Assembly: GCA_934182605.1 (NCBI GenBank)
Contig: CAKPRQ010000005.1
Span: 3,788-67,787 of the forward strand
Source of the DNA: an uncultured Clostridia bacterium
GTDB lineage: Bacteria; Bacillota; Clostridia; TANB77; CAG-508
Direction: 5' to 3'
Length of the DNA: 64,000 bases
Position 1 is the first letter of the stretch, and every line of letters starts with the position of its first letter. Position numbers and translations under genes: made by a program. This document shows, piece by piece, positions 35,365-54,125 of the stretch. The notes under the pieces are model-generated. The model saw only the letters and a list, made by a program, of their open reading frames with translations. It was not told where the DNA came from and ran no database searches.

Positions 35365-36708
35365 CTACATCAACCACTCACCTATTATTTTCTTTAAATT
35401 TCCTATATTTAATTCCTCATAAGATGCAAGTTTTTTATCTAAAACTAATTTTACTAATTTTACCAAACCCTCATCTTCTATTTTCTTTAATTTCTTTAAT
35501 CTAACATTATCTAATCTTGTATTTGATAAATTATTTAGATAAGTCTCTTCATCAAATCCTACTAGCTCAATATTATCTTTAAATCTTGTTTTTAATTTAT
35601 CAGCTATTTGCATTCCTTCAGGATCAATATCTCCTGAATAATACAAATGCACATTATTTTCTACTAACTTTTTTAATAATATTATTCCTGCCAGTTTAAC
35701 CTGTCCATATGTACACACAATTGGAATCTTTTTGTATTTTTCATCTTGAATAATATTAGTAAACACTGCTGGATTTTCTACTATTAAACACTTTTTTATA
35801 CTCGATGTTACATTATCAACTTTACTTAAATTATATAATGTTATTTGCCAAGCTTCGTTATTATTATAAAAAGCTCTCCATCCCTCATTTTCTTTATTAT
35901 TTTTATATCCAATCAAGTTTCGAGCTAATACCATATTAGACATTTCGTCTATCATTAAATTATTATTATAATAAATTTCTGCAATTTCTTCTGTACTTTT
36001 TATTCTTTTGTTTTCTTTAATTTGTTCTTCTTTTACTTGTTCTTTATTACTATTAATTCTTTTGTTTATTATTAGAAAATCTAAAAGAAATTGACCTGCT
36101 AAATTATTTCTATCTAATGAATGTGGGTTACCAGTTATTTTCGCTGAAAAAATTGGCAAGCTTATCTTTTCCTTTGATAAATTTTCTATAGCCTCAATAG
36201 CAATTTTTAATTCATTTTTTAATCTAATTGAACTTTTATTATATTCTTTTTTTATTTTTGCATACATCTCTGCATTTTCTTGCTTAATTAACTCTATAAT
36301 TTTTACAGTATTTTCACTTTTACAATAGCTCTTTATTTCATTTATAAATAACTCAAACTCCTCATTAAATCTTCTTTTTTCTTCTTTATTTGAAATAATT
36401 TCATTTGTAAAATATGTTTCTAAAATTTGTTTTATAGTTAATCCAGCAAATCTTGTTTCATCAATTCTTTTCTGAAATTTTTTTAAATTTATTGTTATAT
36501 TTTTATTTTTACTATAATCTTTTTTCATAAATCCAGATATTGCATCTTTTTCAGCTAAACTAGGATTTTCTATAACTATACTTCCGGGTAATTCTCTTTC
36601 GAAAGATTTATACTTTTGAACCATTTTTTTAAGCATCCTATCATATCCATGATTTTCTTTAAAATAACTTACTGCTTCTTCTAGTAATTTTTCCAATTTT
36701 AATATCAT
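35365..36708 (-). CDS. jetD: Wadjet JetD / MksG-like protein (DUF2220 Toprim-like)
   Basis: 447 aa. C-terminal Toprim-like motif YYSGDIDPEG. It is the last gene of a four-gene operon with an SMC-like ATPase. Confidence 0.7.
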   Translation of the reverse strand: MILKLEKLLEEAVSYFKENHGYDRMLKKMVQKYKSFERELPGSIVIENPSLAEKDAISGFMKKDYSKNKNITINLKKFQKRIDETRFAGLTIKQILETYFTNEIISNKEEKRRFNEEFELFINEIKSYCKSENTVKIIELIKQENAEMYAKIKKEYNKSSIRLKNELKIAIEAIENLSKEKISLPIFSAKITGNPHSLDRNNLAGQFLLDFLIINKRINSNKEQVKEEQIKENKRIKSTEEIAEIYYNNNLMIDEMSNMVLARNLIGYKNNKENEGWRAFYNNNEAWQITLYNLSKVDNVTSSIKKCLIVENPAVFTNIIQDEKYKKIPIVCTYGQVKLAGIILLKKLVENNVHLYYSGDIDPEGMQIADKLKTRFKDNIELVGFDEETYLNNLSNTRLDNVRLKKLKKIEDEGLVKLVKLVLDKKLASYEELNIGNLKKIIGEWLM

Positions 36709-36746
36709 TCCTTCCTAAAGCTGAAATCTAAGTAGATTTCAGCCAA

Positions 36747-39700
36747 CTAATTTAAAAGTTCTCTTACATGTCCATTCCATAAATATCTAATTACAGAGAC
36801 AACTTTTATTTTAGGATCACTTATAAGTTCATTTATTGCTAAACTTGGAATTGTATCATATTCACCCCATAATACTTGTGAATTTATAATATATTCTAAA
36901 TCAAGTTTTGTTAAAATCCTAAACATATCACGAATATTACTATCATCTACCCCTGCAAAAGCTTCATCTAAAGATATAATTCTTGGCGTATCTTTTCTTG
37001 CTGAGTCATATTTTGCCACAACAGCTGCAAATAGTGGAATATACATTGCTAAAGCTTTTTCTCCACCACTTAATTTGAAAAAGGCATTATTTGTTAATTC
37101 CTTTTTAGTATCATTACCTTTTTTATAATTAAACTGAAACTCAAACCAGGTTCTATAATCTAAAACTTCCTTCATTATATTATGGAATGATTTCATTTCC
37201 TCTTTTTGTCTTTGTTCTGCTTTAGCAAATTTACTTCTAAAATGATTTGCAACTTTTGTTACTTCTTCTTGCCTTAAAATTTTTACATCTGAATTTAAAA
37301 TATCAACTAACTCTTTTGTATCCACTTCTGTTTCGTCAGTTGCAACTTTTGGTCTCCAATTTAAACTAAATGATAATTTACTTGTTGTGTCTATGCTTTC
37401 CATTAAATCATTCATAGCCTTTACCCATTGCTTTGCGTGATAAATTCTTTCTCTAATCTTTCTACCTACAGTATTTGTTAAAATCTCTTCAAAAAGAATT
37501 CTATCATCCTCTTCTATTAACATATTAGTTTCAGTAATATTTTCAATTACTTCTTTTTCTAATCTTATTAAATTAACTTTTTGCCCTTTAACATAACATT
37601 TTACATCTTTTCTAGTTCGTCTAGCATATAAAGATAAAAATTGATTTTCATCACTTATACTATCTATATCTATTCTATTTATATCTTCTATTGTCAAATT
37701 ATAATCTACTAAATATTCTGCATTTTCTCTACACTTTATTGAAAGGTTATCCAAATAATGACTAACAGGATATGCATCTTTTTCAAATTTTTGATACTCT
37801 TTTAATATTCTATTTGCTTCTTTAGTTATTTCTTCATAACTTTCAACTACATATTTTAAATCTAATTCAATTTTAAAATTTTCTTGTAAAATTTTTGATG
37901 TTTTACTTAAAAATTGAACTTTTTCAGATATTTCTATATTTTTTTGTGTATTATTTTCTATATCTTTTCTTAAACTAACACTTTTATCTCTTAACTCATC
38001 TCTTTTTTTAGGTAGTTCTTGTTTTGCCTTTATACATTCTTCCATCTGTTTCTTTACTTCATATATATCGTCTGTCATAAGTTCTTCATTTGCTTTTATT
38101 TTTTTCTCTATTACATTATTCTCCAAATTTAATTTATTGATATCATATAGAATATCATCTAATGCCAAAAGATTTTGTTCTAAATTTTCTTTTATTATTT
38201 CTATTTTTTGATATGTATTTATTAAATTATTATGCATTTTTTCTAACTCATATATTAAATCTTTTATTTCATATACGCATTCAAGGATTTCTTTATATAC
38301 TTCAACTGTTTTCTTGAATTTTAATTTATTTGTTTTTTCCTCTAACAAAATCTTTTTATTCTTTATTTCTTCAAATTTTATATATAATTCTTCTTGCTTT
38401 GTTTTTATTTCATTTTCTATAGATTGTAAATCATTTATAGAAACCCTTAAATTATTATATTTTTCTTCTAAATCATTTTTAGGTATGAAATTTTCTAATT
38501 CTAGTTTTAATTTTTGTTTATCATTTTCAATTTTTGCTAATATCTCATTACTTTTTTCTATCTCTAAAATAATCTCTTCTTTCATTTTTAAAAGTTCTTC
38601 TATTTTTTGTTCTTTATATCTTTTTCTTGTAATTACTCCTATATATTGTGCTACTTTTTTGCTATCTGCTTTTCCTCTTAATAAACCAATTTTATATATA
38701 CCTTTTTCATCAATATAATTTTCATCATTAATATCATCAAGAAAAATTGTTTTTAAAACATTATACACCTCTTCTTTTTTTATTTCATAATTTTCTGGTA
38801 AATCAATTTTTAAAATTTGACTCAAATCGTGTTTAAACTCTTTTGGATTCCCTACTAAATATTTATCAACAAAATTATTATCTATTTCCTGAATTTTATT
38901 ATGATATTCTTTTGGTATTATTAACGCATCAAGTAATCCCATGTCCATAAGCGCTGCTTCTATATTATTACGTGTACTTTCATCCACCTCCGGCTTAAAT
39001 TCAACCGCTTTATATAATGGAATAAAAGGAATTTTCATTTCTTGTAATTTTATTCTATTTTCTACTACTGCTTTTTCTCTAATTGGTTCTGGTTCTTTCT
39101 GATTTTTCCATTCTTCTATTTCTGTTTTTATATCATTTAATTTTTTCTCATTTTCATTTTTCACTTGCTTTTCTTCAATTTCTTTTTCAAGTAATTTGGC
39201 ATCAATTTTGCTATAAGCATTACTTACTTCTATTTTTATATCATCATAACCACTTTTCTCTCCATAATTTCTCACATTTTGTGCAATTTTAATCTTATCT
39301 TCTTGAGTAATTTTTAAAATTACATTTGAAGCTTCCCATTTATACATATCTTCAATAAACTTTCCCTTTTCGTCTTCTAAAGACCTCCTATTTTGTAATA
39401 CAATATTATCTTGTTTTATTTTTTTATTCTTTGAAACTTCAAAACTTTTTTCCATATCATCATACATTTTTTCCATTGTAGCAACTTGCTCTATAATTAT
39501 TTTAGCATCTTCAATTCTATCAATATATTTTTTCAAATCATATCTTAAGCTTGAATAATTATATTGTGTATTTATATTCTTTTTTATTTCATCTATTGCA
39601 AAAAAATATTCATCATAAAAACACTCACTTGCTTTTTCTTCTATTTTAGAGGTAATATTATCAAACTCATTTTTGTATTCATCATATTTACTATTATTCT

Positions 39701-40841
39701 GTTTTATAGTATTTTCTTTTTTTCTATTTTCTACTTCTTGTGCCTCTTTTTTCATATTTTTTTCTTCTAAACTTTTTTCTATTTCTCTTTTTTTAACTTT
39801 TAATTCTTGTAAATTTTTTTCTAAGTTCCAAATTTCACTTTTGCTTAATTCTTGTTCTTTAAATTCTACAACTTTTATTTTTGCATCAATATCTTCTATT
39901 TCTCTATTTACTTCTTCATACTCTTTTTTATCTAATACGATTTTATCTTGTAATAATTTTTCTTCATTTAAAATATCTTTATATTTTTTATTCTCTTCTA
40001 CATATTGTTTAGCCTTGCTATATAACACACATTCATTATATTTTCTATAATCTACCATAATGTTATCTATAGCTTTTTTACTACTTTCTAAAAATTTTAA
40101 TTGTTCTTTTGTTTTATTCATATTCTCAATAGATTCAGAAACAGGTCTTAAATCTTCATCTGACAACCCTTGAAGCGAATTAGACATTATTTCAAGTACA
40201 GTAGATGGCCTAAACCCTTCACCTTTTGATAATTTAGGGGTCCTTATTTCTATTAACAATTTTATAAATTCTTCGTATTCTTCTATTGTTTCAAAATGAA
40301 ATATATTTTCATTTACCATTTCCATATATTCTTTTTGAGTTTCTACTACTTTACCACCTAAACCAATCCTGTTTTTTAGTTCTAATTTAGTAAGCGGAAT
40401 TTTATTTTCAACTTCTTTATATAAGAAAAAATCTTCTTTTATTCTTCTACCATCATTTAATAAAAATCCCCAAAAATTTATTGGTTGACCTTTCTTTCCT
40501 CTTAGTCCGATACCAATAGTTATATAATTTTCTGTATTAGGTTTATTAAATTCCATATATAAATAACTAGTATTTTCTTCTTTTATGTCATCACCATAAC
40601 CTAAAACATATTCTTCGATTTTTCTAGCTTTATTTCCAAAAGGATCTAATCTTTCTGGGGTCTTTTTACCATCTAATAGTAATGGTATAAAACTTTGCAT
40701 AGTTACACTTTTTCCTGAGCCATTAGTTCCTCTTAAAATCATTCTCCCATCTGAAAAGTAAAATTCCTCTTCATCATACCACCAATAATTTAATAATCCA
40801 ATTTTATTTATTTTCCACCTATTTTCCATATTTAAACTCAA
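36747..40841 (-). CDS. jetC: Wadjet JetC / MksB-like SMC-family ATPase
   Basis: 1364 aa. N-terminal Walker A GTNGSGKS. A long Glu/Lys-rich coiled coil follows. C-terminal signature LSGGEKALAMYIPLFAAV and Walker B ISLDEAFAGVDD. Confidence 0.8.
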   Translation of the reverse strand: MSLNMENRWKINKIGLLNYWWYDEEEFYFSDGRMILRGTNGSGKSVTMQSFIPLLLDGKKTPERLDPFGNKARKIEEYVLGYGDDIKEENTSYLYMEFNKPNTENYITIGIGLRGKKGQPINFWGFLLNDGRRIKEDFFLYKEVENKIPLTKLELKNRIGLGGKVVETQKEYMEMVNENIFHFETIEEYEEFIKLLIEIRTPKLSKGEGFRPSTVLEIMSNSLQGLSDEDLRPVSESIENMNKTKEQLKFLESSKKAIDNIMVDYRKYNECVLYSKAKQYVEENKKYKDILNEEKLLQDKIVLDKKEYEEVNREIEDIDAKIKVVEFKEQELSKSEIWNLEKNLQELKVKKREIEKSLEEKNMKKEAQEVENRKKENTIKQNNSKYDEYKNEFDNITSKIEEKASECFYDEYFFAIDEIKKNINTQYNYSSLRYDLKKYIDRIEDAKIIIEQVATMEKMYDDMEKSFEVSKNKKIKQDNIVLQNRRSLEDEKGKFIEDMYKWEASNVILKITQEDKIKIAQNVRNYGEKSGYDDIKIEVSNAYSKIDAKLLEKEIEEKQVKNENEKKLNDIKTEIEEWKNQKEPEPIREKAVVENRIKLQEMKIPFIPLYKAVEFKPEVDESTRNNIEAALMDMGLLDALIIPKEYHNKIQEIDNNFVDKYLVGNPKEFKHDLSQILKIDLPENYEIKKEEVYNVLKTIFLDDINDENYIDEKGIYKIGLLRGKADSKKVAQYIGVITRKRYKEQKIEELLKMKEEIILEIEKSNEILAKIENDKQKLKLELENFIPKNDLEEKYNNLRVSINDLQSIENEIKTKQEELYIKFEEIKNKKILLEEKTNKLKFKKTVEVYKEILECVYEIKDLIYELEKMHNNLINTYQKIEIIKENLEQNLLALDDILYDINKLNLENNVIEKKIKANEELMTDDIYEVKKQMEECIKAKQELPKKRDELRDKSVSLRKDIENNTQKNIEISEKVQFLSKTSKILQENFKIELDLKYVVESYEEITKEANRILKEYQKFEKDAYPVSHYLDNLSIKCRENAEYLVDYNLTIEDINRIDIDSISDENQFLSLYARRTRKDVKCYVKGQKVNLIRLEKEVIENITETNMLIEEDDRILFEEILTNTVGRKIRERIYHAKQWVKAMNDLMESIDTTSKLSFSLNWRPKVATDETEVDTKELVDILNSDVKILRQEEVTKVANHFRSKFAKAEQRQKEEMKSFHNIMKEVLDYRTWFEFQFNYKKGNDTKKELTNNAFFKLSGGEKALAMYIPLFAAVVAKYDSARKDTPRIISLDEAFAGVDDSNIRDMFRILTKLDLEYIINSQVLWGEYDTIPSLAINELISDPKIKVVSVIRYLWNGHVRELLN

Positions 40842-40896
40842 TTCCTTCTTATTATCTTATAAATTATATATTATTTTACTTTAAAAACTTTATTTT

Positions 40897-42048
40897 TTAA
40901 ACCTCATCACCTGTATTAAAATTTATTGGGTATCTACCTTTAATTTTAAAAATAATTGGCATTATCCTAAACTCTTTATCTTCTTTTCTTATCATATCAA
41001 ATTCTTTCATATATTCTACTATCTGTTTTTCTAGTTCTTCCTCATTTATTTCTCTATATTCTTTACTAAAACCTCGTCCATATTTTTCTTTTAATTCATA
41101 TATTACTTTAGAAAATTCTATTTCAGAAATTAAGATTGTATCGTTGTCTTCATTTATTAACTTACCATTTTCAAATTTTTCTATTATTAGAGTATTAAAA
41201 AATATGACTACATCAGAAATTGCTTTATTAGTAGGAAAAACATTTTTAAATGGTTCATGTTCAGTAAGCAAAATATATGCACCATTTTTATGTATTTCTA
41301 AACTTGAATCTAGTATTTGGTCAACATCTTGTGATATTATATTTTTATATTGTTTTATATACATATAATCTTGATCATCTTGTTTTTCATTATATACTAT
41401 GTTTTCTGTAAATAATCTTCTATATACTCTTTGCCTTCTCTCTATTCCTTTTTCTTGGTCTAATCCTAATTGTTCTTGTTCATAAATATCAGTATATAAA
41501 TTACAATCTGAAATATTACTTGTAAAATTTCTTACAAAATATTTAGAAACACCTGTGACTTCATAAAGCACATCATTTTCTACATTATCAGCAAACTTAT
41601 TTTCATCACCATCATATAACTTTATAAAACCTAGATCTCGTATATATTTTAAGACCCTAACCATTGCTTGTCTTTGTTTAAACAAATTAAAATCTATTAC
41701 TACATCACCCAAATTAATTTCCATACTAGTACTTTGAATATAATCTACTAATTGTGAAAGTATAAATTGCTCTTTTCTTGACTTTTCTTCTAAAAAAATT
41801 AAAATTAAACACAAAAATACATATTCAAGCTTAGTATTAAATTCCTTTATTCCCATAAATTCTTGTGGAATTCCTGGAATCTTTTCTAGCTTAATAAGAT
41901 ATGGATTAACAATTAGCTTATATCCTAATTTTTGTTTTATAAAATTTAAAGTTTTCTCATCTAATTCCTGTCTTATTTGCTCGTATTTTTCATTATCTTG
42001 CTCATTTATTATCCAATAATTTTCTAGTAATTCCTCTAAAACTTTCAT
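40897..42048 (-). CDS. jetB: Wadjet JetB / MksE-like protein (larger than typical)
   Basis: 383 aa in the second position of the operon. The assignment rests on position only; no motif was recognised. Confidence 0.45.
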   Translation of the reverse strand: MKVLEELLENYWIINEQDNEKYEQIRQELDEKTLNFIKQKLGYKLIVNPYLIKLEKIPGIPQEFMGIKEFNTKLEYVFLCLILIFLEEKSRKEQFILSQLVDYIQSTSMEINLGDVVIDFNLFKQRQAMVRVLKYIRDLGFIKLYDGDENKFADNVENDVLYEVTGVSKYFVRNFTSNISDCNLYTDIYEQEQLGLDQEKGIERRQRVYRRLFTENIVYNEKQDDQDYMYIKQYKNIISQDVDQILDSSLEIHKNGAYILLTEHEPFKNVFPTNKAISDVVIFFNTLIIEKFENGKLINEDNDTILISEIEFSKVIYELKEKYGRGFSKEYREINEEELEKQIVEYMKEFDMIRKEDKEFRIMPIIFKIKGRYPINFNTGDEV

Positions 42049-42100
42049 TTATTTACCTTTCTTTTTTTTATTTTTTAATTAAATAAATTATATAATTTAA

Positions 42101-43597
42101 TTATGTGATAATAAGTTCATATGCTGGCATTTCTAGCACTCCATCAGTACACCTCATTTTGCACCTTGTTTTTTTATCCGGCAATATGACTTCTACCTTT
42201 TCTCCATATTCTGTAATAGTTCTTTTATTTTCTGTTTGATTTGCTTGACTAATCCATTTCAAAATGTTTTTTCTTACAATAGGTTCAATCACTGGTAGGT
42301 CTTTTATAACTATTTTTCCCTGTACAATATATTTTCTAACCAATTTTTCCTCTTCTTCCCTTTGTTTTAAATATTCCTCTATTTTTTGTTTTTTTATTTC
42401 TGTTTTATCTTCTATTATTGTCTTTTCTTTTTTCTCCTTAAATTCTCTTATTCTAGGTTTTATTTCAATTTCTTGTCTAACTTCTTCTAAAATACTACTA
42501 TTTACATTATCTGTTTCTCTCTCAAAATTTCCTTTTAAATGTCTAGTATTTTTCATGCCAAAAACTAAACTAGATAATTTATGTGCTTCTTCTATTGTCT
42601 CAGTATTACAAAACATTTCACAAATCTTTTTATATTCCGCTTTTCTACTATTTATATTTCCTTTTGATTCTGCAATTTGATTTGCTATTCTAGTTATTTT
42701 TCTTATAATCTCACTAGTTTTTTCTTCTATATTTTGAACTTCACTTTCCCTTTTTTCGTCTCCAATAAACCATTTCTTTATGTTTTCCCATTTTTCTTTA
42801 TTTCTATCTTTCATTTCTTGCTCTGGAATATCCTCTTCTAATTTATCAATCCTTATAATCTTTTTTTGTGCTTGCCAAACTTTATCTAACACTTTAATTT
42901 CTGTATCTTTATTTACAGTTTTTAATATTCTTTCTATTTCATAAGAATTATCTTGAAGCGCTTTAATAAACTCTCGTAAATACATTACTAAGTCATTTTT
43001 ACTTGCAATAAACTTAGAACTTTGTGCAACTTCTTCCATTCTTATATTATAAAAAGATTTAATATATGCTTGATAATTTTCATTTAATCTTTTAAAATCT
43101 GCATTTAAGCTCTCCCACCAACCATTTACTTTACTTTCAATTTCATTTTCCATTTCATTAATTTCTGCTATTTCTTCTTTTATTTTTTCTATTAATGTAG
43201 GATCTAAAGATGACCCTTCAATATGTAAATTTTCAAGCTCTACAACTAAACTTTCTATTTTTACTGCAAAATCTGATAATTGATATCTATATTTTTTATT
43301 CTTAAATTCTTCTAATGTATATGCAACAGAAGTATCTTGAATTGCAATTAAATTCTTCCACTCAGTTAAAGCAGCTAAATCATTATCACATTGTTCTATT
43401 GTATAATTTTCAAACCCTTTTTTCCCTACAAATTCATTAAATATATCTTCTTTATATAACATATAATTCATTTTTTGATTTTGTATATAAAAAAAACGCA
43501 AAATAGGTCTATACCTTTTTGTGTTTTCTTTTGTTAAATATGCTGTTTCTAAAATTGTTTTTGTTAGTTTATCTGTTATTTCCATTATATCTCCCAT
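42101..43597 (-). CDS. jetA: Wadjet JetA / MksF-like kleisin-type protein
   Basis: 498 aa and first gene of the operon. Its size and position fit JetA (DUF3375). Confidence 0.5.
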   Translation of the reverse strand: MGDIMEITDKLTKTILETAYLTKENTKRYRPILRFFYIQNQKMNYMLYKEDIFNEFVGKKGFENYTIEQCDNDLAALTEWKNLIAIQDTSVAYTLEEFKNKKYRYQLSDFAVKIESLVVELENLHIEGSSLDPTLIEKIKEEIAEINEMENEIESKVNGWWESLNADFKRLNENYQAYIKSFYNIRMEEVAQSSKFIASKNDLVMYLREFIKALQDNSYEIERILKTVNKDTEIKVLDKVWQAQKKIIRIDKLEEDIPEQEMKDRNKEKWENIKKWFIGDEKRESEVQNIEEKTSEIIRKITRIANQIAESKGNINSRKAEYKKICEMFCNTETIEEAHKLSSLVFGMKNTRHLKGNFERETDNVNSSILEEVRQEIEIKPRIREFKEKKEKTIIEDKTEIKKQKIEEYLKQREEEEKLVRKYIVQGKIVIKDLPVIEPIVRKNILKWISQANQTENKRTITEYGEKVEVILPDKKTRCKMRCTDGVLEMPAYELIIT

Positions 43598-43691
43598 TTT
43601 TATATTTTAAAATATTTTATTTTACTGAATTAAATTTACATAAATATTTTACTATGTTTTTACATTTTTTTCAATATAAATATATAATTTT

Positions 43692-44099
43692 TTATTGAAA
43701 ACTTTCTATATCATATGGCCAATCAATTATTCCACCAAAATTATATATTTTGGTATATCCCATTTGAGATAATTTTTTAGCTGATAATTCACTTCTATAT
43801 CCACTTCTACAATAAACTAATATCACTTGATTTTTATCTTTTGGTTCACTATTAGCTCTTTCTTCAATTTCATAATCTGGGATATTTATTGCATTTGGAA
43901 TATGACCTTCATTATATTCTTCTTGAGAACGAACATCTAAGATAATAAATCCCGAGTTATTATCCATATATTCCTTTGCCTCTTCTGCTGATATATTTAT
44001 GTAATTTGTTGTTGTGTTTTTATTCATCATAAATCCTCCTATTGAAATTATAATTAATATACTAACTAGTAATATTATTAGAAATGTAATTTTTTTCAA
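43692..44099 (-). CDS. membrane-anchored rhodanese-domain sulfurtransferase
   Basis: N-terminal TM helix followed by a rhodanese fold with the active-site loop CRSGYRS. Confidence 0.7.
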   Translation of the reverse strand: MKKITFLIILLVSILIIISIGGFMMNKNTTTNYINISAEEAKEYMDNNSGFIILDVRSQEEYNEGHIPNAINIPDYEIEERANSEPKDKNQVILVYCRSGYRSELSAKKLSQMGYTKIYNFGGIIDWPYDIESFQ

Positions 44100-44379
44100 C
44101 CTTTCCCTCCAAAATATTTGTATAATATTTTTAATAAATACTTTTTACTATTTCTTTTAAATTATATCATATATTTTTTTATAAATATATATTTTAATTT
44201 TATTTTTTTATTTCTATTTAAAGTTTATTAATGAAAAATGTATTTTCACAAATTATTACATGTAGCTATTTATAAGTTAATACCCAAATTGTATCACTAT
44301 AGCTATGTTTTGTGGATTTTATACTGTGCTTTAACAATTTTTATATTCTTTATAATTTGAACCTTCGGGTTATGAGCCC

Positions 44380-44530
44380 GTAAGTGTTGATATTGCTGGG
44401 TTTGGTGTAATTGTGTTATGCTTTGTTAGAGTAAGTTAATCGGTGAAATTGGTGATGCTTTGTTTGTGTTAAATTGTGTTTAAAATCGTGTAGTTTTGTA
44501 GAGAGTGTGACCAAGGTGTGACTAAGAAAC
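44380..44530. repeat. Strongly GT-skewed (plus strand) repeat-containing segment at the left edge of the integrase element
   Basis: Short direct repeats (attgtgtt twice, tgctttgtt twice, gtgtgac twice). Composition is unlike the surrounding AT-rich DNA. Confidence 0.3.
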
Positions 44531-44540
44531 CACTTCTTAA

Positions 44541-44574
44541 AGATGTAAAAAATACACATATTATAATGTGTATT
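44541..44574 (-). terminator. Terminator hairpin (aatacacat / atgtgtatt) plus T-tract for the TPR gene
   Basis: Seen directly, immediately 3' of the stop at 44575. Confidence 0.5.
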
Positions 44575-46878
44575 TTATAAAATATCTTTTATTATCTTTT
44601 TTAATATTCCCCATATTAATTCTGCTTCTTCCGTTTCAATATTCATAGTTTTTCTAAGCTCTACACTTGGATGTATTAAGTTTCTATAATTTCGTAAAAA
44701 TTGTGTCAAATGATAATCTGTCTGATGTATTATATATTCTTTTTGAGCAACTTCTATTAAATCAGCTAATCCCATATCTTTAACTTTAATTTTTCTCTCT
44801 TTACCATCTTTTATTAAACTATAATTTTTAATTCCCTTCTCTTGTACTTTATAATTTAGTAAAGCCTCTGCCATGCTTCCTGATAATACAATAGCAGTTT
44901 TTTCTTGTTTACTTGCCATTGCTATTGCACATTCTTTAAAATCTCTTAATAGTATTTCAACAATTTCTTTATCTTCTATTTTTCTTATTTTATTTTTTAA
45001 TTCATCTGTATATCCAATACTACTTAAATAGTCAATGTTTATATTTCCTGAAATATTTTCATATTCTTTATTAGCTTCTATATACTCTATTCTTTCTTGA
45101 AGATAATCTCTTACCAATTCATTTAATCTATATTGGTTTCTTCCCCAATCATCTTGACTTTTAATTTTCACTATATATTTTTTATTAGTAAATGTCTCAA
45201 ATAATTCTTGAGCTTTTTCTGGACTAGTCTTTAAAATTTTAGGTCGTTCATTATATGAACATGTTATTATGCCATCTTCTACTTGCTCATATAATAATTC
45301 CAATTTTGATAGCACCCATACTTTTTCTTTTTGAATTTCTTCATATGCTTCATATAAATCACTTATTTTCTTATTAACATCCTTTAAATTTGAAGATGAA
45401 ATATTATCCTCTGGATCTGATGCTGATGCAATTTCAAAATACTCCTTAGCTTTAAACAGATTTCCCTCTTCTTTATAGATAACACCTAAATTATTGTTAT
45501 ATGCAGAATTATTAGGGTTTTCTTCTAATAAATATTCATATAATTGTCTTGCCACATTTTTATCCCTATGAGAATATGCTATTTCAAAAATATTCTTCAT
45601 TTTCAATAAGTGTCTAATTTTAATATCTTTTACTAATCTATCTATATAATCATACATATCTCTTTTGAATAACTCTTTTACTATGCAATCTATAAAAGTC
45701 CTTATTAAATCTCCTACTGAAATATCATAATTTTGAATATTATCCTTTATAATTATTAATCTATTTACAATTTTTATTAAATCTTCTTTATTTGTATATT
45801 CTAAATAAAAATCATATTTCTTCTTTCCAAAGACTTCTCTAGCAATTCTATTCTCTGCATATTGTTTTATTGCAAAGTCAAATGCTTCAAAATTTTTTTC
45901 TACATTTATATACATATTAAATATTAGAATATATATTTCTTTTTCATAGTCGTAATATTTTAAAGCTGATATTAAATTCTTTATATCCTTTAATTTATAA
46001 TTTATGTCTTCTCCATTATTAATCTTGATATTTAAATATGAGCCTTTCATTATTCTTATTTTTGCTTGTTTTTTATTCGTAAAAGAGTTCTCTAATTCTT
46101 CGAAAATTTTCATATATAAATCATTTAAATCAACATCAATTTCATTTTTCCAAAAATACATATCCTCTATTTGACATTTTATTGGAATTTTTTCCATTAT
46201 TTCACTAACATTTTCTTCATCTTCTTCCAAATATAATAGTATAATATAGTGCCAGTATTTTAGTTCATTCTTAATATCTTCATTAATTATATCTGTTATA
46301 TTTTTTATTATTTCTTCTTTATTTTCTAATTCTTTGTTTTCCAATATTTCACTTGATATTTTTAACAAATAATAAAAATGCTCTTTTGACTTATCTTTAA
46401 ATTTCACTTTTTCTATTAATTCTACTGTTCTTTTATAATTCTTCTCTCTATATGAATATTCTATAAAACTTTTATAAATATTTTCATCTGCAATATTGTT
46501 TTCTAAGAAATACTCTATAATTTTGTTCTTTTCTTTATTACTTTCTCTAATAAAAAGTCTTTTATATAATTCAATATCCTGTTCAAATTCTTTTAGTCCT
46601 TTTTTTAAAAAACCTATTGCAATATTGTTATCTTCAACCTCTAAGTCGTCGTATCTATAATATGAAAATCTAAAACTCGGAATGCAATTAATACTCTTTT
46701 CATAATAATATTTCGCTTTTAAAGTATTTCTCTCTTCTTTTCGTTCTTCTATCATTCCTAGCATATGATATAACCTTGCAAATTCTTCTTCATGTTTCTT
46801 ATCTTTTAGCATAATTTCAATTAGTTTTTTTGCTTCATTATCTTTATTTTGTTTTAATAGTTCAATTAGTTCTTCCAT
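44575..46878 (-). CDS. large TPR-repeat protein with a C-terminal HEPN-like (Rx6H) domain
   Basis: 767 aa. TPR-like repeats include AYNNNLGVIYKEEGNLFKAKEYFEIASASDP. The C-terminus reads ...QFLRNYRNLIHP..., an Rx4-6H motif. Confidence 0.45.
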   Translation of the reverse strand: MEELIELLKQNKDNEAKKLIEIMLKDKKHEEEFARLYHMLGMIEERKEERNTLKAKYYYEKSINCIPSFRFSYYRYDDLEVEDNNIAIGFLKKGLKEFEQDIELYKRLFIRESNKEKNKIIEYFLENNIADENIYKSFIEYSYREKNYKRTVELIEKVKFKDKSKEHFYYLLKISSEILENKELENKEEIIKNITDIINEDIKNELKYWHYIILLYLEEDEENVSEIMEKIPIKCQIEDMYFWKNEIDVDLNDLYMKIFEELENSFTNKKQAKIRIMKGSYLNIKINNGEDINYKLKDIKNLISALKYYDYEKEIYILIFNMYINVEKNFEAFDFAIKQYAENRIAREVFGKKKYDFYLEYTNKEDLIKIVNRLIIIKDNIQNYDISVGDLIRTFIDCIVKELFKRDMYDYIDRLVKDIKIRHLLKMKNIFEIAYSHRDKNVARQLYEYLLEENPNNSAYNNNLGVIYKEEGNLFKAKEYFEIASASDPEDNISSSNLKDVNKKISDLYEAYEEIQKEKVWVLSKLELLYEQVEDGIITCSYNERPKILKTSPEKAQELFETFTNKKYIVKIKSQDDWGRNQYRLNELVRDYLQERIEYIEANKEYENISGNINIDYLSSIGYTDELKNKIRKIEDKEIVEILLRDFKECAIAMASKQEKTAIVLSGSMAEALLNYKVQEKGIKNYSLIKDGKERKIKVKDMGLADLIEVAQKEYIIHQTDYHLTQFLRNYRNLIHPSVELRKTMNIETEEAELIWGILKKIIKDIL

Positions 46879-46968
46879 AGTAAATCCTTTCGATACTTTT
46901 TAACTATTATATTAACATTATTTAATCAAATATTTTGTCGAAACTTGTAGAAAATTATACTTTTATAA

Positions 46969-47796
46969 TTATTTATGGTTATCTATTTTATCAATATATT
47001 CATCCCAATCTTGTTCATTTCCTTCCATTTCGTGCAACCAAAAATACATAAATAATATTTCAAATTCTTGTTTTTTACCTTTAGTAAATGATTTCTTTGG
47101 CATGTTCCTATATAATGAATCTATATTAAATAAATTATCTCCATTTTTATAATCATATTCATATCCTCTATATGATTCACTATTTTTCTTTTTGTGTTTA
47201 CTTCCCCATATTTCTGGAGTTTCATAAAAATAATTTACCCAATCGAAAGCAAAAGCACATAAATTTACACCATATTTATTTTTCGTTTTCTCTATCCATT
47301 CATCTATTTCTTCATTTATCGATGGAATATTCCACCTTGATTGATTACTTTCCACTCTATGATATTCTTTTAAAAATTTGTATAACATTTCTTCTTGCCC
47401 TTTTAAATATGGAAATCTCTTTATATACTCAGCATAGCACTCATAAGATAAACTTCTGAATTCACTTTCTTCACTTAATAAATAAAAATAAGTTTGTTCT
47501 ATCCTTGTGCCTCTTCCTATTGACTTATCTAAAAAGTTTCCATATTCAGAATATATATTTACTAACCATTCTCTTATTTCAGAATCATAATCTCTTAATT
47601 TTTTACGATATTTATCTAATTTTTCTTCTTTTGCTATTGTTGTTTCCTCTAGTTCTGTAATATCTAAATAATTATTAAAATATTCAAATATATAGTTTAC
47701 ACATATTTTTAAATTTTCATCTTTTTTATTTTTATCAAATTCATTTATTCCATCTTCTTTTTTTCTTTTTTCAACATATTCTTCTAACTTCATCAT
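46969..47796 (-). CDS. hypothetical protein (middle gene of the three-gene cassette)
   Basis: 275-aa acidic protein rich in aromatic residues. No motif was recognised. Confidence 0.4.
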   Translation of the reverse strand: MMKLEEYVEKRKKEDGINEFDKNKKDENLKICVNYIFEYFNNYLDITELEETTIAKEEKLDKYRKKLRDYDSEIREWLVNIYSEYGNFLDKSIGRGTRIEQTYFYLLSEESEFRSLSYECYAEYIKRFPYLKGQEEMLYKFLKEYHRVESNQSRWNIPSINEEIDEWIEKTKNKYGVNLCAFAFDWVNYFYETPEIWGSKHKKKNSESYRGYEYDYKNGDNLFNIDSLYRNMPKKSFTKGKKQEFEILFMYFWLHEMEGNEQDWDEYIDKIDNHK

Positions 47797-47817
47797 ATTA
47801 TTTTTTCTCCTATCTGA

Positions 47818-48579
47818 TTAAAATATACTTTCAAACTCCAATGGCACTATATCTTCATAAAGCAATGTATATTGCGAATTAACTTGCCTATAATCATGGT
47901 AATGTCCAAAATACCATTTTTTAAATTCACACTTTTCTGATATTTGCTGCAAATAATCTGTTAAACAATCTTTCTTATATTTTCCTGCACCTAATATAAC
48001 TTGTACACTTGTTGGACAACAATGTGAAATAATATAATCAACTTTATAATTTACTTTTTCTAAATTTTTAATTCCATTTTCCATCTCTTCATTTGTTGGC
48101 AATTCTAAATCCCACCATGAGTAATCTCTAATTCTAAAATATGCACCTCTTTTTCTAAAGTTATATATCTTTTCTTCTTCATCTAAGTTTAATATTCCAT
48201 CTTGTATATCATGTGAAGATGCTCCACCAAATGCAAATATTTTTTTATTATCTATTTCAAAAATTTCACCTCTCATTAGGTGTAATACTGAATCTCTAAT
48301 TTTGTGTACCTTCCCTCCGTGCCACTTTTTCTCTGGATAGTTATATAATCTAGTAAAATTCTCATGATTACCATCTACAAATAATGTTGTAAAATTCTTT
48401 TTATTTAACCAATCTAACCCATACTTTTCCTGTTCACTCTCGTTTTCAAATGTCCAAACTCCGCCAAAGTCTCCGCATATAATAACATAATCATCTTTTG
48501 TCATTTCTGTTTGAATAGGAAAGTTATCCATTGAAAATCTTGTAAAGTCAGAATGGCAATCTCCTGTTATATAAATCAT
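47818..48579 (-). CDS. calcineurin-like metallophosphoesterase
   Basis: MPP motifs GDCHSD, GDFGGVW and GNHEN are present. Confidence 0.7.
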   Translation of the reverse strand: MIYITGDCHSDFTRFSMDNFPIQTEMTKDDYVIICGDFGGVWTFENESEQEKYGLDWLNKKNFTTLFVDGNHENFTRLYNYPEKKWHGGKVHKIRDSVLHLMRGEIFEIDNKKIFAFGGASSHDIQDGILNLDEEEKIYNFRKRGAYFRIRDYSWWDLELPTNEEMENGIKNLEKVNYKVDYIISHCCPTSVQVILGAGKYKKDCLTDYLQQISEKCEFKKWYFGHYHDYRQVNSQYTLLYEDIVPLEFESIF

Positions 48580-48737
48580 TTTATCACCTTTTTCTGTTCA
48601 TTTCGGTATTTAATATATAAACATATTGATTTTTATTCATTTCTTATATACCGCTTCTGAATTTATTTGTATTATACTATTTTTTATTTAAAATTCCTAG
48701 TATTTTTACAGAAAAAGAAACCTTTAATCAAAGGCTT

Positions 48738-50063
48738 CTAAAATGGCAATATTATTTCTTCATTTTCTTTATTTGTAGAATTTTTACCTAAATCTGGACT
48801 TATCATTTGTTGATGTACCGCAATTACAGCTATACTTTCATTGTTAATTTTTCTTCTTATCATATTTCTATCTTTTTCAGCAATTGCAATGCTTCCATGT
48901 TTTTTCAAATATGTCCAAAGCGCTCCTGGGTTTAATGGAAATTTAATATTTTGTTTTTCATAATATTCTACAACTAATTTATATGCAGTTCCTGGTATTA
49001 AATAATACATGCTTTTTTGACTGTCATAACATCCTAAAACTTTTGCATATGGATTCGTACTACTTTGGTTTTCATGTAGATATACTTGAAAATATGCTTC
49101 TCCACTTGCCAACAATTCTTGTATTGCATAGAAAAACATTTTATCTGGTTTTGAATCTGATGTTCTAATACTTTGTTTATTTGCTAATTTTAACAAACTA
49201 TTAAAACATATTAGTTTCCATTCAGTCATAATCGTTGTATCTATAACACCATTGGCTCTTGCAAATTCAAAAAACATTTCACAACCTATATACAATGATG
49301 CCATATTTTCTGGTATTCTCGCATGAGAAAAATCTCTGTTAAATTTTTCTCTATATCTAGGAAAGTCAATCTTTATTTGCTCTCTAACTTTATCGTAATT
49401 TACAATTATCCATTTTATATACTCTCTCATACAAATATTAAGCTTATCTTTATTTCCTTGTAAGTATGATAAAATATCTAATCTTAAATCTCCCTTTTCT
49501 ATTTCTACAATTACGCTTCTGGCTACCCTACTTTCTGCGAAATTAGGAAAGTTTTCTCCTGTTGCCATTAATATTCCTCTTGAGCTATATGATTTTCTTA
49601 TATCTTTACCATTTTGTTTCATTCTTGATCTGCCTTGTTTATCTCCTGCCATTCCAAATATACTTTCCGCAACTGCTTCCATTTTTCTCGACTCTTGTAA
49701 TGATTGACTTGGATAATAGTCATCTATTAACAATACACTGTCTTTTACTATAAAAGCTTGTTTTTCTAGACTATTTACCGTATCTTTAAACCCACAAGGT
49801 ATTGTATCTCTTTCAAAATTTCCAAAGTGCGATAACATTAATGCTGCTAAAGTACTTTTTTGTGTTCCACTTTCTCCTAGTATCCAAGTAACAAAACCAT
49901 TAGCTATTCCTATTTCTCTAAATATTTCTTGTAAAGGTGCTAAAAAAATGGTTCCTAATAATGGTACTATAATAGTTTCTTTCCCTACATTTAATAAGCT
50001 GAGTGATGTTTCTACACATTCCTTTATTTGTTTTGAATCTAACTGGTCTTCTATAAACTTATA
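48738..50063 (-). CDS. P4/D5-type helicase C-terminal module of a primase-helicase (in frame with the upstream primase ORF across a single TAA)
   Basis: P-loop-like GESGTQKST lies immediately upstream of the annotated Met. Walker B VLLIDDYYP. The frame is open from 50063 down to 48738. Confidence 0.55.
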   Translation of the reverse strand, partial: YKFIEDQLDSKQIKECVETSLSLLNVGKETIIVPLLGTIFLAPLQEIFREIGIANGFVTWILGESGTQKSTLAALMLSHFGNFERDTIPCGFKDTVNSLEKQAFIVKDSVLLIDDYYPSQSLQESRKMEAVAESIFGMAGDKQGRSRMKQNGKDIRKSYSSRGILMATGENFPNFAESRVARSVIVEIEKGDLRLDILSYLQGNKDKLNICMREYIKWIIVNYDKVREQIKIDFPRYREKFNRDFSHARIPENMASLYIGCEMFFEFARANGVIDTTIMTEWKLICFNSLLKLANKQSIRTSDSKPDKMFFYAIQELLASGEAYFQVYLHENQSSTNPYAKVLGCYDSQKSMYYLIPGTAYKLVVEYYEKQNIKFPLNPGALWTYLKKHGSIAIAEKDRNMIRRKINNESIAVIAVHQQMISPDLGKNSTNKENEEIILPF

Positions 50064-51518
50064 TTATTCTAGTCCTGACTCACTTAAATCAACTTTTATA
50101 TCTTTATTCTCTCCAATTACTCCACCATGATATAAATAATGTAATTTTCCATTTATTTTTCTAAAACCCATATGTGAATATATTATTTCTTTAGTTGATA
50201 ATTTACTTAATATTTTTGATGTATCTTTAAAATATTCTTTATTATTTCCATTTGGACTTATTCTAGGCTCAAAGTTCCATGTTCCATTTGCAATCCAATT
50301 TAAGCTCTCAAAGTCTTTTATATTTAGTGTTATTTTTGGCAACTCTTCTCCTGTATTTAAAATAGTTTTTAAAGTAACATCTGTCCTTGTTTCATTTCCA
50401 TCATTATATGTAATAAACTTTGTTGGAATTGCAATAAAATTACTTATTACTTTATCTTCTAATACATCCTTTTTTATTATTTTCTTAACCAACCCTCTGT
50501 CAGAAAATTCATAACTATGAGGTCTTAATAAATCATTATATTGTTTATACTTATCTTCTGATATTTCAAATTCATCATTATATGCATATCCTTCTAATAA
50601 TCTTGGACAATAATAATTATCACTTTTATATTCTATACTTTTTCCTCCATAAAAGAAATCTGCTAAATTTTGTTTTGATGTATCTGGATTAAAATCTTTA
50701 AATATTTCTAATAATTTTTTAGGGATTTTTTCAGCAGTTTTATAATCCACAATGGGTTCTTCCAAAACATAACCAACCCTAAATTTATGTTGTTCCTCAC
50801 TATGGCTAAATGTATAATATGCAAATGTAGGCATAAACTCTATTTTCTTACAATATTCTAGTAATTTATTTATTGTTGCATGTTCTTTTTCATTTGCACA
50901 TATTTTTATTCCATTTTTTGTGTTATCAAAATCCACTAAAAATAATTGTTGCCCTTTAAAATTTTGTTTTGCATTCGACTTTATTCCTGATGGAATTATT
51001 GTTTTTCCTTTTACAATATTATTTAATATTTCATCTAATGAATATTTTTTTATTTCAAGATTAGGTATTCGATTTTTTATATATGCCGCCTCTTTCTTAT
51101 CTGGCTTGCTTGTATGTTCTATTATATCAAACATACAATTTATATCTCTCGGTTTATTACCTTTATCAAATACTAAATCTGTAATTTTTTCTTTTGTTCT
51201 ATTTTTACTGAAGCAAGACATATTTTCTTTTATCTCTATATTTAATCCAAAGTCATTAATCAATTGTTTTGCTGCATCAAAATATGTTGGTAAATTTTTA
51301 TATTGCATTACAAATGTTACCATATTACCACTATGCTCTTTTGCTGCAAAATCTGTAAAACCTTTTTCATCATTTACCCAGAACGACGGATGCTTTTCAT
51401 TTCTAAATGGCGAACAATATCCAATACTATTTCCAGAATGTTGTTGCGGTTCACCTAAATAATATCTTGCTACTTGTTTATTTGTTAATTTACTTCTAAT
51501 TTCATCATATATATTCAA
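50064..51518 (-). CDS. primase module (CHC2-type zinc finger) of a phage/plasmid primase-helicase
   Basis: CHC2-like zinc-finger motif YCSPFRNEKHPSFWV. It ends at a TAA that is in frame with the helicase module. Confidence 0.55.
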   Translation of the reverse strand: MNIYDEIRSKLTNKQVARYYLGEPQQHSGNSIGYCSPFRNEKHPSFWVNDEKGFTDFAAKEHSGNMVTFVMQYKNLPTYFDAAKQLINDFGLNIEIKENMSCFSKNRTKEKITDLVFDKGNKPRDINCMFDIIEHTSKPDKKEAAYIKNRIPNLEIKKYSLDEILNNIVKGKTIIPSGIKSNAKQNFKGQQLFLVDFDNTKNGIKICANEKEHATINKLLEYCKKIEFMPTFAYYTFSHSEEQHKFRVGYVLEEPIVDYKTAEKIPKKLLEIFKDFNPDTSKQNLADFFYGGKSIEYKSDNYYCPRLLEGYAYNDEFEISEDKYKQYNDLLRPHSYEFSDRGLVKKIIKKDVLEDKVISNFIAIPTKFITYNDGNETRTDVTLKTILNTGEELPKITLNIKDFESLNWIANGTWNFEPRISPNGNNKEYFKDTSKILSKLSTKEIIYSHMGFRKINGKLHYLYHGGVIGENKDIKVDLSESGLE

Positions 51519-51664
51519 TTGTATCCCTCCTAAAATATTTCTAAATTTATTGAATATTTTAGGCTAATCGTATATAATATATTTAGAGATTGTTTATATA
51601 GGTTAACCTTTATATTCAATTATATTGTTCTTTCAAGTACCAATTGAAAGGACAATTTTTTATT

Positions 51665-51883
51665 TTATACAATGTGAAAATCCCTTCTTTCATTCAAAAT
51701 GCTATTTTCTTCTTGAGATTTTATAAAATCGTTTACTGATTTTTTTGTAAAAAATACTCTTCTACCAATCCTTACAAATTTTATTTTTCTTTCTCTGATT
51801 AATTTTGAAAGAGACCACTCTGTAAATATCGGTTTATATTTTTCTATTACTTGTTGTTTTGTTAAGAATTCTTCTTCATCCAT
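51665..51883 (-). CDS. excisionase/AlpA-like HTH DNA-binding protein
   Basis: 72 aa containing LTKQQVIEKY...VRIGRRVFFTKKSVNDFI (HTH_17/Xis pattern). Confidence 0.55.
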   Translation of the reverse strand: MDEEEFLTKQQVIEKYKPIFTEWSLSKLIRERKIKFVRIGRRVFFTKKSVNDFIKSQEENSILNERRDFHIV

Positions 51884-51884
51884 T

Positions 51885-52079
51885 TTATTTTGTGTTCACC
51901 TCCTGCTTCTTTAACCAAATTAAAAACTCTTTTTTAGGTATTAATTTTCTATTCCCTATTTTTACTAATGGAATTTGTCCAGAATTTATTAAATTATATA
52001 CTCCTGCTTTTGAAATTCTCATTTTTTCTTGAATTTCTTTAACAGTTAATAGCTCTGGAATATCTGTTTTTTCTTGCAT
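51885..52079 (-). CDS. excisionase-like HTH DNA-binding protein
   Basis: 64 aa containing LLTVKEIQEKMRISKAGVYNLINSGQIPLVKIGNRKLIPKKEF. Confidence 0.6.
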   Translation of the reverse strand: MQEKTDIPELLTVKEIQEKMRISKAGVYNLINSGQIPLVKIGNRKLIPKKEFLIWLKKQEVNTK

Positions 52080-52197
52080 AATCTCACCTCCTTAGAATTA
52101 TTCGAAGTAATTGACAGATTATTCTTGACTTTTAATATGTCTATATGTTACAATAGATTCAAATTTAAGTCAAGACATTTTTGAAATTTATTTTAAA

Positions 52198-52911
52198 ATG
52201 TCTAAAAAGGAGATAGTTATGAAACAAGACTCAAAGCAAATTCATCTATATATAAATAATGATACATGTTATCTTATAGATATTGAAAAAAAAGCTGTTA
52301 CTAAAGAATTTAATTTAGGTAATTTTGTAATTGAATTATTTGAAGAAACTAATGCAACTGAAAAACATTTAATTGAATTTTTGTTAAATAATCATGCAGA
52401 TTCATTATATAATTTAGGTAATGAATTATCAAAAATGGGACCATTCAAATGTAGAATTTTTAGTGGAATTAAAATAGAGAATGATTTACAAATGCCATTA
52501 GAAATTTATACTTTTAAATCTTATCATGATTTTATTTTATTCATTTTATATAGAGCCGCTGCTTTAAATATTCAATTTAATAAATGTAAAAATTGTGGCA
52601 AATATTTTGTTCCTACAACTAAAAGTAATGAAATATATTGTACTCGTGTTTTTAGAAATGGTAAGACTTGTAGAGATATCGGTTATGAGCTTTCTGTACA
52701 ATCTGATGAAATAACAAAGTTATATAGAAATGCATATAAAACTCAAAATGCCAAGAAGCAAAGAAATAAGGATATTGCTAATGTAGATAAACTATTTGCC
52801 AATTGGGCTTCTAAGGCTAAAGAGATGTATAAACTTTGTAAAGATAATAAAATTAAACTTGATGAACTTTCAAAATGGCTAAAAGATAATCAAGATTGGA
52901 TTAATAAGTAG
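52198..52911 (+). CDS. hypothetical zinc-ribbon protein upstream of the integrase
   Basis: 237 aa with a four-cysteine zinc-ribbon-like cluster (CKNCGKYF...CTR...KTCR). Confidence 0.4.
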   Translation: MSKKEIVMKQDSKQIHLYINNDTCYLIDIEKKAVTKEFNLGNFVIELFEETNATEKHLIEFLLNNHADSLYNLGNELSKMGPFKCRIFSGIKIENDLQMPLEIYTFKSYHDFILFILYRAAALNIQFNKCKNCGKYFVPTTKSNEIYCTRVFRNGKTCRDIGYELSVQSDEITKLYRNAYKTQNAKKQRNKDIANVDKLFANWASKAKEMYKLCKDNKIKLDELSKWLKDNQDWINK

Positions 52912-52923
52912 GAGGTAATATAT

Positions 52924-54108
52924 TTGGCAGGAAACATTCTATATATGGGAAATGAAAAATATAGACTTCGTGTTAGTAATGGTTTCGATTCAAATGGAAA
53001 AAGAAAATATTTCAATAAAACTGTTACTTGTTCATCTAAAAGGGAAGCCGAAAAAGAACTTGCAAAATTTATCACTTCAATTGAAGGCGGTTGCACGTAT
53101 TCTGCAAAAAAAGTTATATTAAATGATTTTAGTAAACAATGGTTAGAAACATATGTAAAACCTAATCTTTCACCAACAGCTTACCAAAGTTATAATGAAA
53201 AATTAAATAAACATATTTTACCATATTTAGGTAACAAGCGACTTGATAAAATAAAACCTTTGGATTTGGATAATCTGTATAATTTTTTGCTAACTAAACC
53301 AACTAATAGAAAAGACAAAAATGGTAATTACAAAACTTTATCTCCAGCTAGTGTACATCGTGCTCATGAAATATTATCTAGCATTTTCAGTAATGCTCTT
53401 AGGTGGGACATGGTTTCATATAATCCATGTACTAAAGTTGTTCAACCTAAATTTAAACGTACTAAAATGACATGTTATGATGAAGAAACATCTAAAAGAT
53501 TAATAAATGCCCTACTTAAGAAAGCTCCTATAAAATATAAATGCTTTGTTATTCTTGCTATATTAACTGGTTTTAGACGTGGTGAATTAGTTGGTTTGCA
53601 TTGGGATGATATTGATTTTAAAAATCATAAAATAAGTATTAAACGAAGTGCCTATTATTTAAGTGGTCAACCTACTTCTGAGAAGAGTCCTAAAACTGAT
53701 TTAAGTACTCGTACAATAGCAGTACCTAGTATTTGCTTTGATTTGCTTAAACAATGGAGATGTGAGCAAGGTAAGATGAGACTTGCATTGGGTAAATCTT
53801 GGAATGGTGCTAAAAATGTTTTTACTACTGCTGATGGTAGAATTATGAATCCTGCAACTGGTCCTAAATGGTTTAGTTCTTTCTTAACTAGAAATGGTTT
53901 TCCTCATATTCGTTTTCATGATTTGAGACATACTTTTGCTACTTTGCTTATTTCTGGTAATGTTGATGTTAAGACTGTTTCTCATAAATTAGGTCATGCT
54001 AGTACTGATACTACTTTGAAGTTTTATGTTCATGATTTGGAGTCTACCGATAGGGCTAGTGCGGAGTTGTTGGAGAATATGTTGGTTAAAGATGTGAATA
54101 TTGTATAA
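52924..54108 (+). CDS. int: tyrosine site-specific recombinase (phage integrase family)
   Basis: 394 aa with catalytic R...HDLRHTFAT...LGHASTDTTLKFYVH (R-H-R-Y). Confidence 0.85.
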   Translation: MAGNILYMGNEKYRLRVSNGFDSNGKRKYFNKTVTCSSKREAEKELAKFITSIEGGCTYSAKKVILNDFSKQWLETYVKPNLSPTAYQSYNEKLNKHILPYLGNKRLDKIKPLDLDNLYNFLLTKPTNRKDKNGNYKTLSPASVHRAHEILSSIFSNALRWDMVSYNPCTKVVQPKFKRTKMTCYDEETSKRLINALLKKAPIKYKCFVILAILTGFRRGELVGLHWDDIDFKNHKISIKRSAYYLSGQPTSEKSPKTDLSTRTIAVPSICFDLLKQWRCEQGKMRLALGKSWNGAKNVFTTADGRIMNPATGPKWFSSFLTRNGFPHIRFHDLRHTFATLLISGNVDVKTVSHKLGHASTDTTLKFYVHDLESTDRASAELLENMLVKDVNIV

Positions 54109-54125
54109 TACTCACATCTTTATTA

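Follow-up and report, generated by a model that had tools for sequence, protein, structure and literature searches.

Do three tightly packed genes in the cargo slot of a small mobile element form one defence system, or are they separate genes that share a site? The question is raised by a stretch of 64,000 nucleotides (nt) from an uncultured Clostridia bacterium (contig CAKPRQ010000005.1, positions 3,788 to 67,787 of the forward strand; "the window" in what follows), in which an integrative element of approximately 9.7 kb carries, on the minus strand, a metallophosphoesterase gene (gene 1, 47818-48579, 253 amino acids, aa), a gene for a protein of 275 aa (gene 2, 46969-47796) and a gene for a TPR protein of 767 aa with a C-terminal HEPN domain (gene 3, 44575-46878). 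An earlier note on this sequence had correctly recognised the three co-oriented open reading frames, all with ATG starts, and had proposed that they constitute one undescribed three-gene anti-phage system. In this study I show that the three genes are found together in a single element only, the cargo slot of which is a site of exchange for defence genes.

The family of the 275-aa protein, named U275 in this analysis, was sought by running its alignment against one genome per species, with 140 confirmed matches and 80 loci kept, and all proteins of the element were compared by tblastn with these 80 loci. Phosphoesterase and TPR protein accompany the family in only two of them (L012 and L013), which are the same element at an identity of at least 98%. 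The converse scan, with a 30-member alignment of the TPR/HEPN protein against metagenomes and viral contigs, gave 88 loci with the family or its domain, and the phosphoesterase and U275 genes were found in just one (L098), again the same element. Each of the three genes occurs without the other two in many unrelated contexts. No neighbour is conserved across the 80 loci of U275, and no neighbour recurs among the 31 full-length TPR/HEPN loci, where the upstream gaps are mostly larger than 100 nt and several genes abut integrases. A TPR homologue of 70% identity, for instance, follows a DpnII restriction-modification (R-M) system, a HATPase_c_3 protein and a 259-aa gene and adjoins another integrase, and a homologue of 29% identity is solitary, with an integrase fragment and a Fic gene as neighbours. 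The 259-aa gene could have been a diverged counterpart of gene 1 or of gene 2, but it is similar to neither.

As the three genes do not co-occur outside one element, they are not a conserved multi-gene system. I read the cargo, with a probability of about 70%, as three independently mobile single-gene modules arranged in tandem, possibly co-transcribed, and without function as a trio. The alternative, in which phosphoesterase and 275-aa protein work together with a TPR-HEPN effector as one new three-component defence system, is largely refuted by the co-occurrence test and appears very improbable, even though the layout of the genes speaks for it. They are co-oriented and closely spaced, with gaps of 21 nt between genes 1 and 2 and 90 nt between genes 2 and 3, and they are bracketed by two hairpins, while none was found between genes 2 and 3. 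The hairpin that ends the cassette (44546..44572, minus strand) had been predicted beforehand and is intrinsic-terminator-like, with an 11-bp stem and a U run (-11.4 kcal/mol, z -2.87). The other (48716..48739, minus strand) is a terminator-like hairpin after the primase-helicase gene, and separates this gene from the cassette, which begins a new transcription unit past it; a TAGTATAAT -10-like box and a AAAGGTGA ribosome-binding site can be discerned by eye 3' of this hairpin. In addition, no known system matches the three proteins: PADLOC 2.0 assigns none of them to a named system and has no match for the 275-aa or the 767-aa protein, and its sole hit is a weak partial match of the phosphoesterase to PDC-S10 (1e-7, 29 bits). 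The layout thus invites a tempting error, in which tight tandem genes of a hotspot are taken for an operon-encoded system where they would really be stacked independent modules.

The element itself extends over 44362..54107 (minus strand) and can be described as an integrative mobile element, either satellite-like or an integrative and mobilizable element (IME), on the basis of its blastn copies, a comparison of its ends and its domains. The loci used for blastn were fetched via the 275-aa protein, and the boundaries of the element follow from a comparison with three other insertions. The window from 44362 to ~54087-54107 recurs at 98.4-98.7% identity in two metagenome-assembled genomes (MAGs; L012 and L013), in which the flanks of the element are unrelated to those in the window, and the metagenome contig L098 holds near-identical copies of every element protein. 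The same element with differing flanks in these loci identifies a discrete, recently mobile 9.7-kb unit. Domain searches give the gene order as integrase, DUF6076 protein, two HTH_17 (Xis-like) proteins, primase-helicase of the CHC2 zinc-ribbon type, and cargo. An integrase, excision and regulation genes, a primase module and a small island with defined ends are thus all present, as in satellites and phage-inducible chromosomal islands (PICIs), which agrees with the description of a satellite-like element in the earlier note; domain and PHROGs scans recognised no packaging or capsid-redirection genes among the open reading frames.

Sister elements show what else this slot can hold. The same backbone, consisting of integrase, DUF6076 protein, two HTH_17 proteins, a 926-aa primase and a 93%-identical phosphoesterase after the same 158-nt spacer, is found elsewhere with AbiLi and AbiLii (L092-L094 7852-9718; 9e-89 and 3e-26) and three other genes as cargo 3' of the phosphoesterase. 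In a related element (L014/L016), the integrase of which is 79% identical and the replication protein 46%, the gene 3' of the 275-aa gene is PDC-S56 (L014 10321-12267 / L016 10858-12804; 6e-224). The presence of AbiL or PDC-S56 in the same slot of sister elements makes the slot a true exchange point for defence genes, and it is a real defence hotspot with modular exchange; the suggestion that anti-phage systems are carried at this place was therefore right. These mixtures, of phosphoesterase with AbiL and of 275-aa gene with PDC-S56, also speak against a single system. What emerges is a family of small elements of gut Firmicutes whose cargo slot swaps defence genes (here the present genes, elsewhere AbiL or PDC-S56), an instance of the familiar defence hotspots carried by small mobile elements. 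The hotspots of P4-like satellites (PMC9122126) and the cargo of PICIs are likewise variable defence slots in small elements with integrase and primase. The present element differs from these in its Firmicutes host and in its CHC2 zinc-ribbon primase and DUF6076 protein, and its status as a satellite is putative.

Judged from its sequence, gene 1 encodes a stand-alone calcineurin-type metallophosphoesterase of an abundant phage and mobile-element type. The translation contains the motifs GDCHSD, GDFGGVW and GNHEN on which this assignment had first been based, the metal-binding motifs are all intact (D7xH9, G36D37, G70NHE73, and GHYH near the C-terminus), and the protein matches the phage family phrog_1649 at 2e-42. 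The window protein itself has no Pfam match, weak precomputed PF00149 matches are seen in 83%-identical relatives, and comparison with PDB sequences gave nothing meaningful. Relatives form more than 7,900 clusters in gut metagenomes among the matches listed, with hundreds at ~83% identity. In other islands, phosphoesterase genes of 82-83% identity are preceded by type I R-M genes or by a reverse transcriptase gene, in one case (L190) with a start that overlaps the end of the 304-aa reverse-transcriptase gene, and these islands also hold ThsB-TIR, AAA_21/RloB and HAD phosphatase genes nearby. In two of them (L186-L189 6001-7303; L190-L192 6001-7477) a HAD/PGP-phosphatase gene lies ~218 nt 3' of the phosphoesterase gene. 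This order, compared as gene order only, is the same as in DS-9 of DefensePredictor, a validated defence system of a metallophosphatase and a HAD phosphatase (PMC13092281). However, there is no HAD gene in the window, where the gene for the all-alpha 275-aa protein comes next, 21 nt downstream, and the mutations used in DS-9 (D207A, N292A; PMC13092281) imply a longer protein than the 253-aa phosphoesterase of the window.

The phosphoesterase gene either closes the backbone of the element or is an accessory gene in its own right. In the former case it, and possibly the 275-aa protein as well, would serve the life cycle of the element, in replication, induction, helper exploitation or counter-defence, and the TPR-HEPN protein would be the sole true defence cargo. 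In two cargo variants the phosphoesterase gene keeps its position 158 nt past the 926-aa primase, which is in accordance with this explanation, as are the phrog_1649 match and the relatives of 31-50% identity that occur in contigs of gut phages and in viral contigs, which range from 7 to 233 kb and mostly measure 99-233 kb; the 275-aa gene, for its part, lies directly 3' of the replication gene in L014/L016. However, the phosphoesterases of 82-83% identity are also found outside such elements, beside the R-M, reverse transcriptase, ThsB-TIR, AAA_21/RloB and HAD genes just mentioned, phage and plasmid records contain hardly any member of the 275-aa family, and in ~76 of 80 loci the 275-aa gene does not adjoin a primase of this type. 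I consider such a role in the life cycle unlikely, if by no means far-fetched.

Gene 2 is the most novel of the three modules and represents a truly uncharacterised family. Its all-alpha product had been reported to lack a recognisable domain, and searches of Pfam, NCBIfam, PHROGs and PADLOC indeed gave no credible match; the only entry listed is Pfam Med4, below its threshold (E 0.022, 14.9 bits versus a cut-off of 26.9 bits), and there is neither a PDB sequence match nor a fold match. U275 comprises at least 516 clusters at 90% identity and has members in 140 species-level genomes, which belong to Clostridia, Bacilli, Negativicutes and Dehalococcoidales; the mean column identity of its alignment is 66% across classes. 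Large serine recombinases lie a few genes from the 275-aa gene in 25 of the 80 loci. The family occurs in defence-rich islands: of 73 genes immediately downstream of the 275-aa gene, at least 13 match models of PADLOC (PDC-S05, AbiH, PDC-S21, TmtA, PDC-S56, PDC-S50, PDC-S13, PDC-S23, PDC-M05A and a type I S subunit), and further neighbours are DarT, RhuM, Schlafen and SocA by Pfam. A HEPN-profile search of all open reading frames around the family revealed no recurrent hidden HEPN partner. The 275-aa protein is thus an orphan-fold gene product recurring in defence-rich variable islands of Firmicutes, and a candidate stand-alone defence or defence-associated protein. A more far-reaching reading, which I hold to be less likely than not, is that U275 marks variable defence slots and is itself either a new single-gene immune protein or a new regulator of such slots, unrelated to described domains.

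A variant of this suggestion would give the 275-aa protein the sole role of a conserved regulator or anchor for variable defence slots, similar to that of BrxR/CapW-type regulators, and not that of an effector. Same-strand, highly variable genes, many of them defence genes, follow 3' of the 275-aa gene in 63 of 77 loci, the family is unusually conserved, and its gene precedes the TPR-HEPN gene in the window and PDC-S56 in L014/L016, all of which fits a regulator. Against this, no DNA-binding domain was found in the protein by sequence or fold, and the gap to the downstream gene is smaller than 60 nt in only 31 of 77 loci, so that a purely regulatory function seems quite unlikely. As a separate observation on the same family, a 53%-identical homologue in Acetivibrio cellulolyticus (L010 105-10198) follows type I hsdR, two GmrSD genes and a gene for an HNH_3 protein, and precedes a pentapeptide/ion-channel protein.

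The 767-aa product of gene 3 consists of an N-terminal region, a canonical TPR pair (~aa 433-500), a middle region (~aa 520-600) and a C-terminal HEPN domain (~aa 603-767). Its description as a TPR-repeat protein applies to ~aa 433-500 only, as the Pfam TPR pair is found at residues 433-491, just under the cut-offs, and the match of the family profile to consensus TPR structures is confined to positions 440-527; the first ~430 residues are without domain assignment. The middle region is missing in a 681-aa relative (P0010), which marks it as a separable domain, and by its sequence pattern it looks winged-helix-like. The C-terminus, in which the earlier note had seen a HEPN-like Rx6H motif, is predicted to fold as a HEPN domain, with a four-helix up-and-down bundle (pLDDT, the model's own confidence score, 83.7). 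The motif requires correction. Near the end of the protein sits LTQFLRNYRNLIHP, and the family motif is [R/K]x[Y/F]RNx[I/V]HP, in which the arginine of the Rx6H spacing (R729) is K or H in some relatives and the invariant arginine is R732, in RNxxH, with an Rx3H spacing to H736. Within the domain, which is DUF4145-like (44578..45072, minus strand), the invariant residues include G667, S668, E671, R732, N733, H736 and P737; in 30 full-length relatives, down to 23% identity, D646, E649, K660 and W756 are invariant as well, and across 26 divergent domains G, E, R, N, H and P still are, with R732, N733, H736 and P737 among them.

Fourteen of these 26 divergent relatives match DUF4145 (best E 1.1e-5), two match HEPN_RiboL-PSP and one HEPN_LA2681 (weak), while two full-length relatives match DUF4145 at E ~0.007, under its 23.1-bit cut-off. 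Two profiles of the HEPN domain found no match among PDB sequences. When the last 165 residues of the protein were used for an exhaustive profile search, 96 representative proteins were found at E<=1e-30, most of them 680-790 aa long with the domain at the C-terminus, and 3,115 at E<=1e-3; the domain is also present in shorter proteins and is N-terminal in a few. An initial impression that the protein is very rare, with 11 relatives in a word-indexed search, was a search artefact that the exhaustive search overturned.

How could such a protein act? Of the three modules it is the easiest to interpret, and it is probably a single-polypeptide sensor-effector, the N-terminal repeat region of which would sense a phage product and thereby release or assemble the HEPN RNase. 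The long helical/TPR N-terminus would keep the C-terminal DUF4145-like HEPN RNase inactive until a phage-derived protein is bound, upon which the HEPN domains would pair or oligomerise and cleave cellular and phage RNA, and the resulting halt of translation would lead to abortive infection. A precedent is RAZR (ring-activated zinc-finger RNase), a single protein of an N-terminal zinc finger and a DUF4145 HEPN domain, which is activated by phage proteins, cleaves single-stranded RNA and causes abortive infection, with R146 and H154 being essential (PMC13017515). In both proteins an N-terminal module precedes a C-terminal divergent DUF4145-type HEPN domain on a single polypeptide, no partner gene is involved, and the Arg/His spacing (R146/H154 in RAZR) is non-canonical. 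However, the N-terminus of RAZR is a small Cys4 zinc finger, whereas the 767-aa protein has ~600 aa of helical/TPR repeats and middle domain and an RNxxHP motif, and is known from sequence and predicted fold alone; its translation lacks a Cys4 zinc ribbon of the RAZR type and any Pfam zinc finger. DS-11, a one-protein CBS and HEPN defence, has also been described (PMC13092281). DUF4145 counts among the recognised HEPN families, and fusions of it to Sel1 repeats and zinc ribbons, as well as of LA2681-type HEPNs to TPRs, are reported in the catalogue of Anantharaman et al. 2013 (PMC3710099). Those families belong to the same architecture class, helical repeats with HEPN in R-M and defence contexts; the entries are computational, and the likeness to the 767-aa protein is at the level of architecture class, with the window protein under the Pfam HEPN thresholds.

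The TPR-fused DUF4145-like HEPN protein with its unusual RNxxHP motif extends the sensor-HEPN theme of RAZR. Alternatively, it could be an addiction or stabilisation toxin of the element, similar to those of toxin-antitoxin pairs, and not a sensor of infection. I regard this as improbable, as no antitoxin-like gene, be it an MNT or a small partner, is conserved next to it in the 31 full-length loci, and the conserved ~600-aa N-terminal region fits a sensor or regulatory module better. The cargo offers two testable single-gene candidates, the TPR-HEPN protein and the highly conserved orphan-fold 275-aa protein with its clear defence-island association, neither of which would be conceptually surprising for the field.

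Several observations sit uneasily with the preferred reading of three independent modules with a defensive role. The genes are tightly packed without an internal terminator, so that co-transcription and some local functional coupling are possible. The phosphoesterase keeps its place after the primase in two cargo variants and may be a backbone (life-cycle) gene, and a mean column identity of 66% in the 275-aa family is unusual for a fast-evolving defence sensor. For the 767-aa protein, the Rx3H spacing falls outside the canonical Rx4-6H and the arginine of Rx6H varies, by which its catalytic competence is not certain; moreover, the window protein stays under every Pfam HEPN threshold and has no DUF4145 (PF13643) match at E<=10. 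The defence role is derived from context and fold.

Further features of the element concern its integration and replication. The insertion site of the related element L014/L016 is the 3' half of a tRNA-Met gene, whereas the copies in the window, L012 and L013 sit in non-tRNA sites. Past the cassette lies a conserved non-coding end arm of 180 nt (44362..44541, minus strand), which is 78% identical in L014/L016 despite the other cargo and terminates in GGGCTCATAACCCGAAGG, a tRNA-Met anticodon-arm fragment (att core) that matches the L014/L016 site; in L014 (12284-12520) the arm abuts the true tRNA-Met 3' half. The arm is nearly G-free on the minus strand and carries two AACAAAGCAT[CA]AC repeats, likely the arm sites of the integrase, and no convincing direct repeats were found at the two element ends. 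The DUF6076 protein (52198-52911, plus strand, the integrase strand) is probably the repressor or regulator of the element: its gene is always found between the integrase and Xis-like genes, also in more distant integrative elements (L001 17507-18553, L014 4922-6067). The primase-helicase gene (48738-51518, minus strand), a single 926-aa open reading frame in L012, L013 and L092, is split in the window by a CAA>TAA nonsense codon at 50064-50066 into parts of 484 and 366 aa, and differs from the intact copies by 51 substitutions over 2,781 nt and zero indels. The copy in the window may be replication-defective, or the nonsense base may be an assembly error.

The surroundings are as rich in defence genes as had been described. 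One flank of the element is formed by a Wadjet type II operon (JetA2/B2/C2/D2, 35365-43597), with a rhodanese gene (43692-44099) between operon and element, and the opposite flank by the type I R-M genes hsdR/S/M (54126-60905). No tRNA genes are present in the window, and an Rfam scan of 43500-55000 gave chance-level matches alone. The G+C content is ~25% across the whole window, and the nearest public genomes are uncultured human-gut Clostridia MAGs. In the R-M locus, residues 4-431 of the 641-aa hsdS product (57251-59176, minus strand) match type I specificity models and residues 444-629 additionally match the C-terminal part of the type I methyltransferase model, and the adjoining hsdM (59160-60905) spans just positions 4-475 of a 661-position model, a layout that may represent an unusual M/S domain split or a rearrangement.

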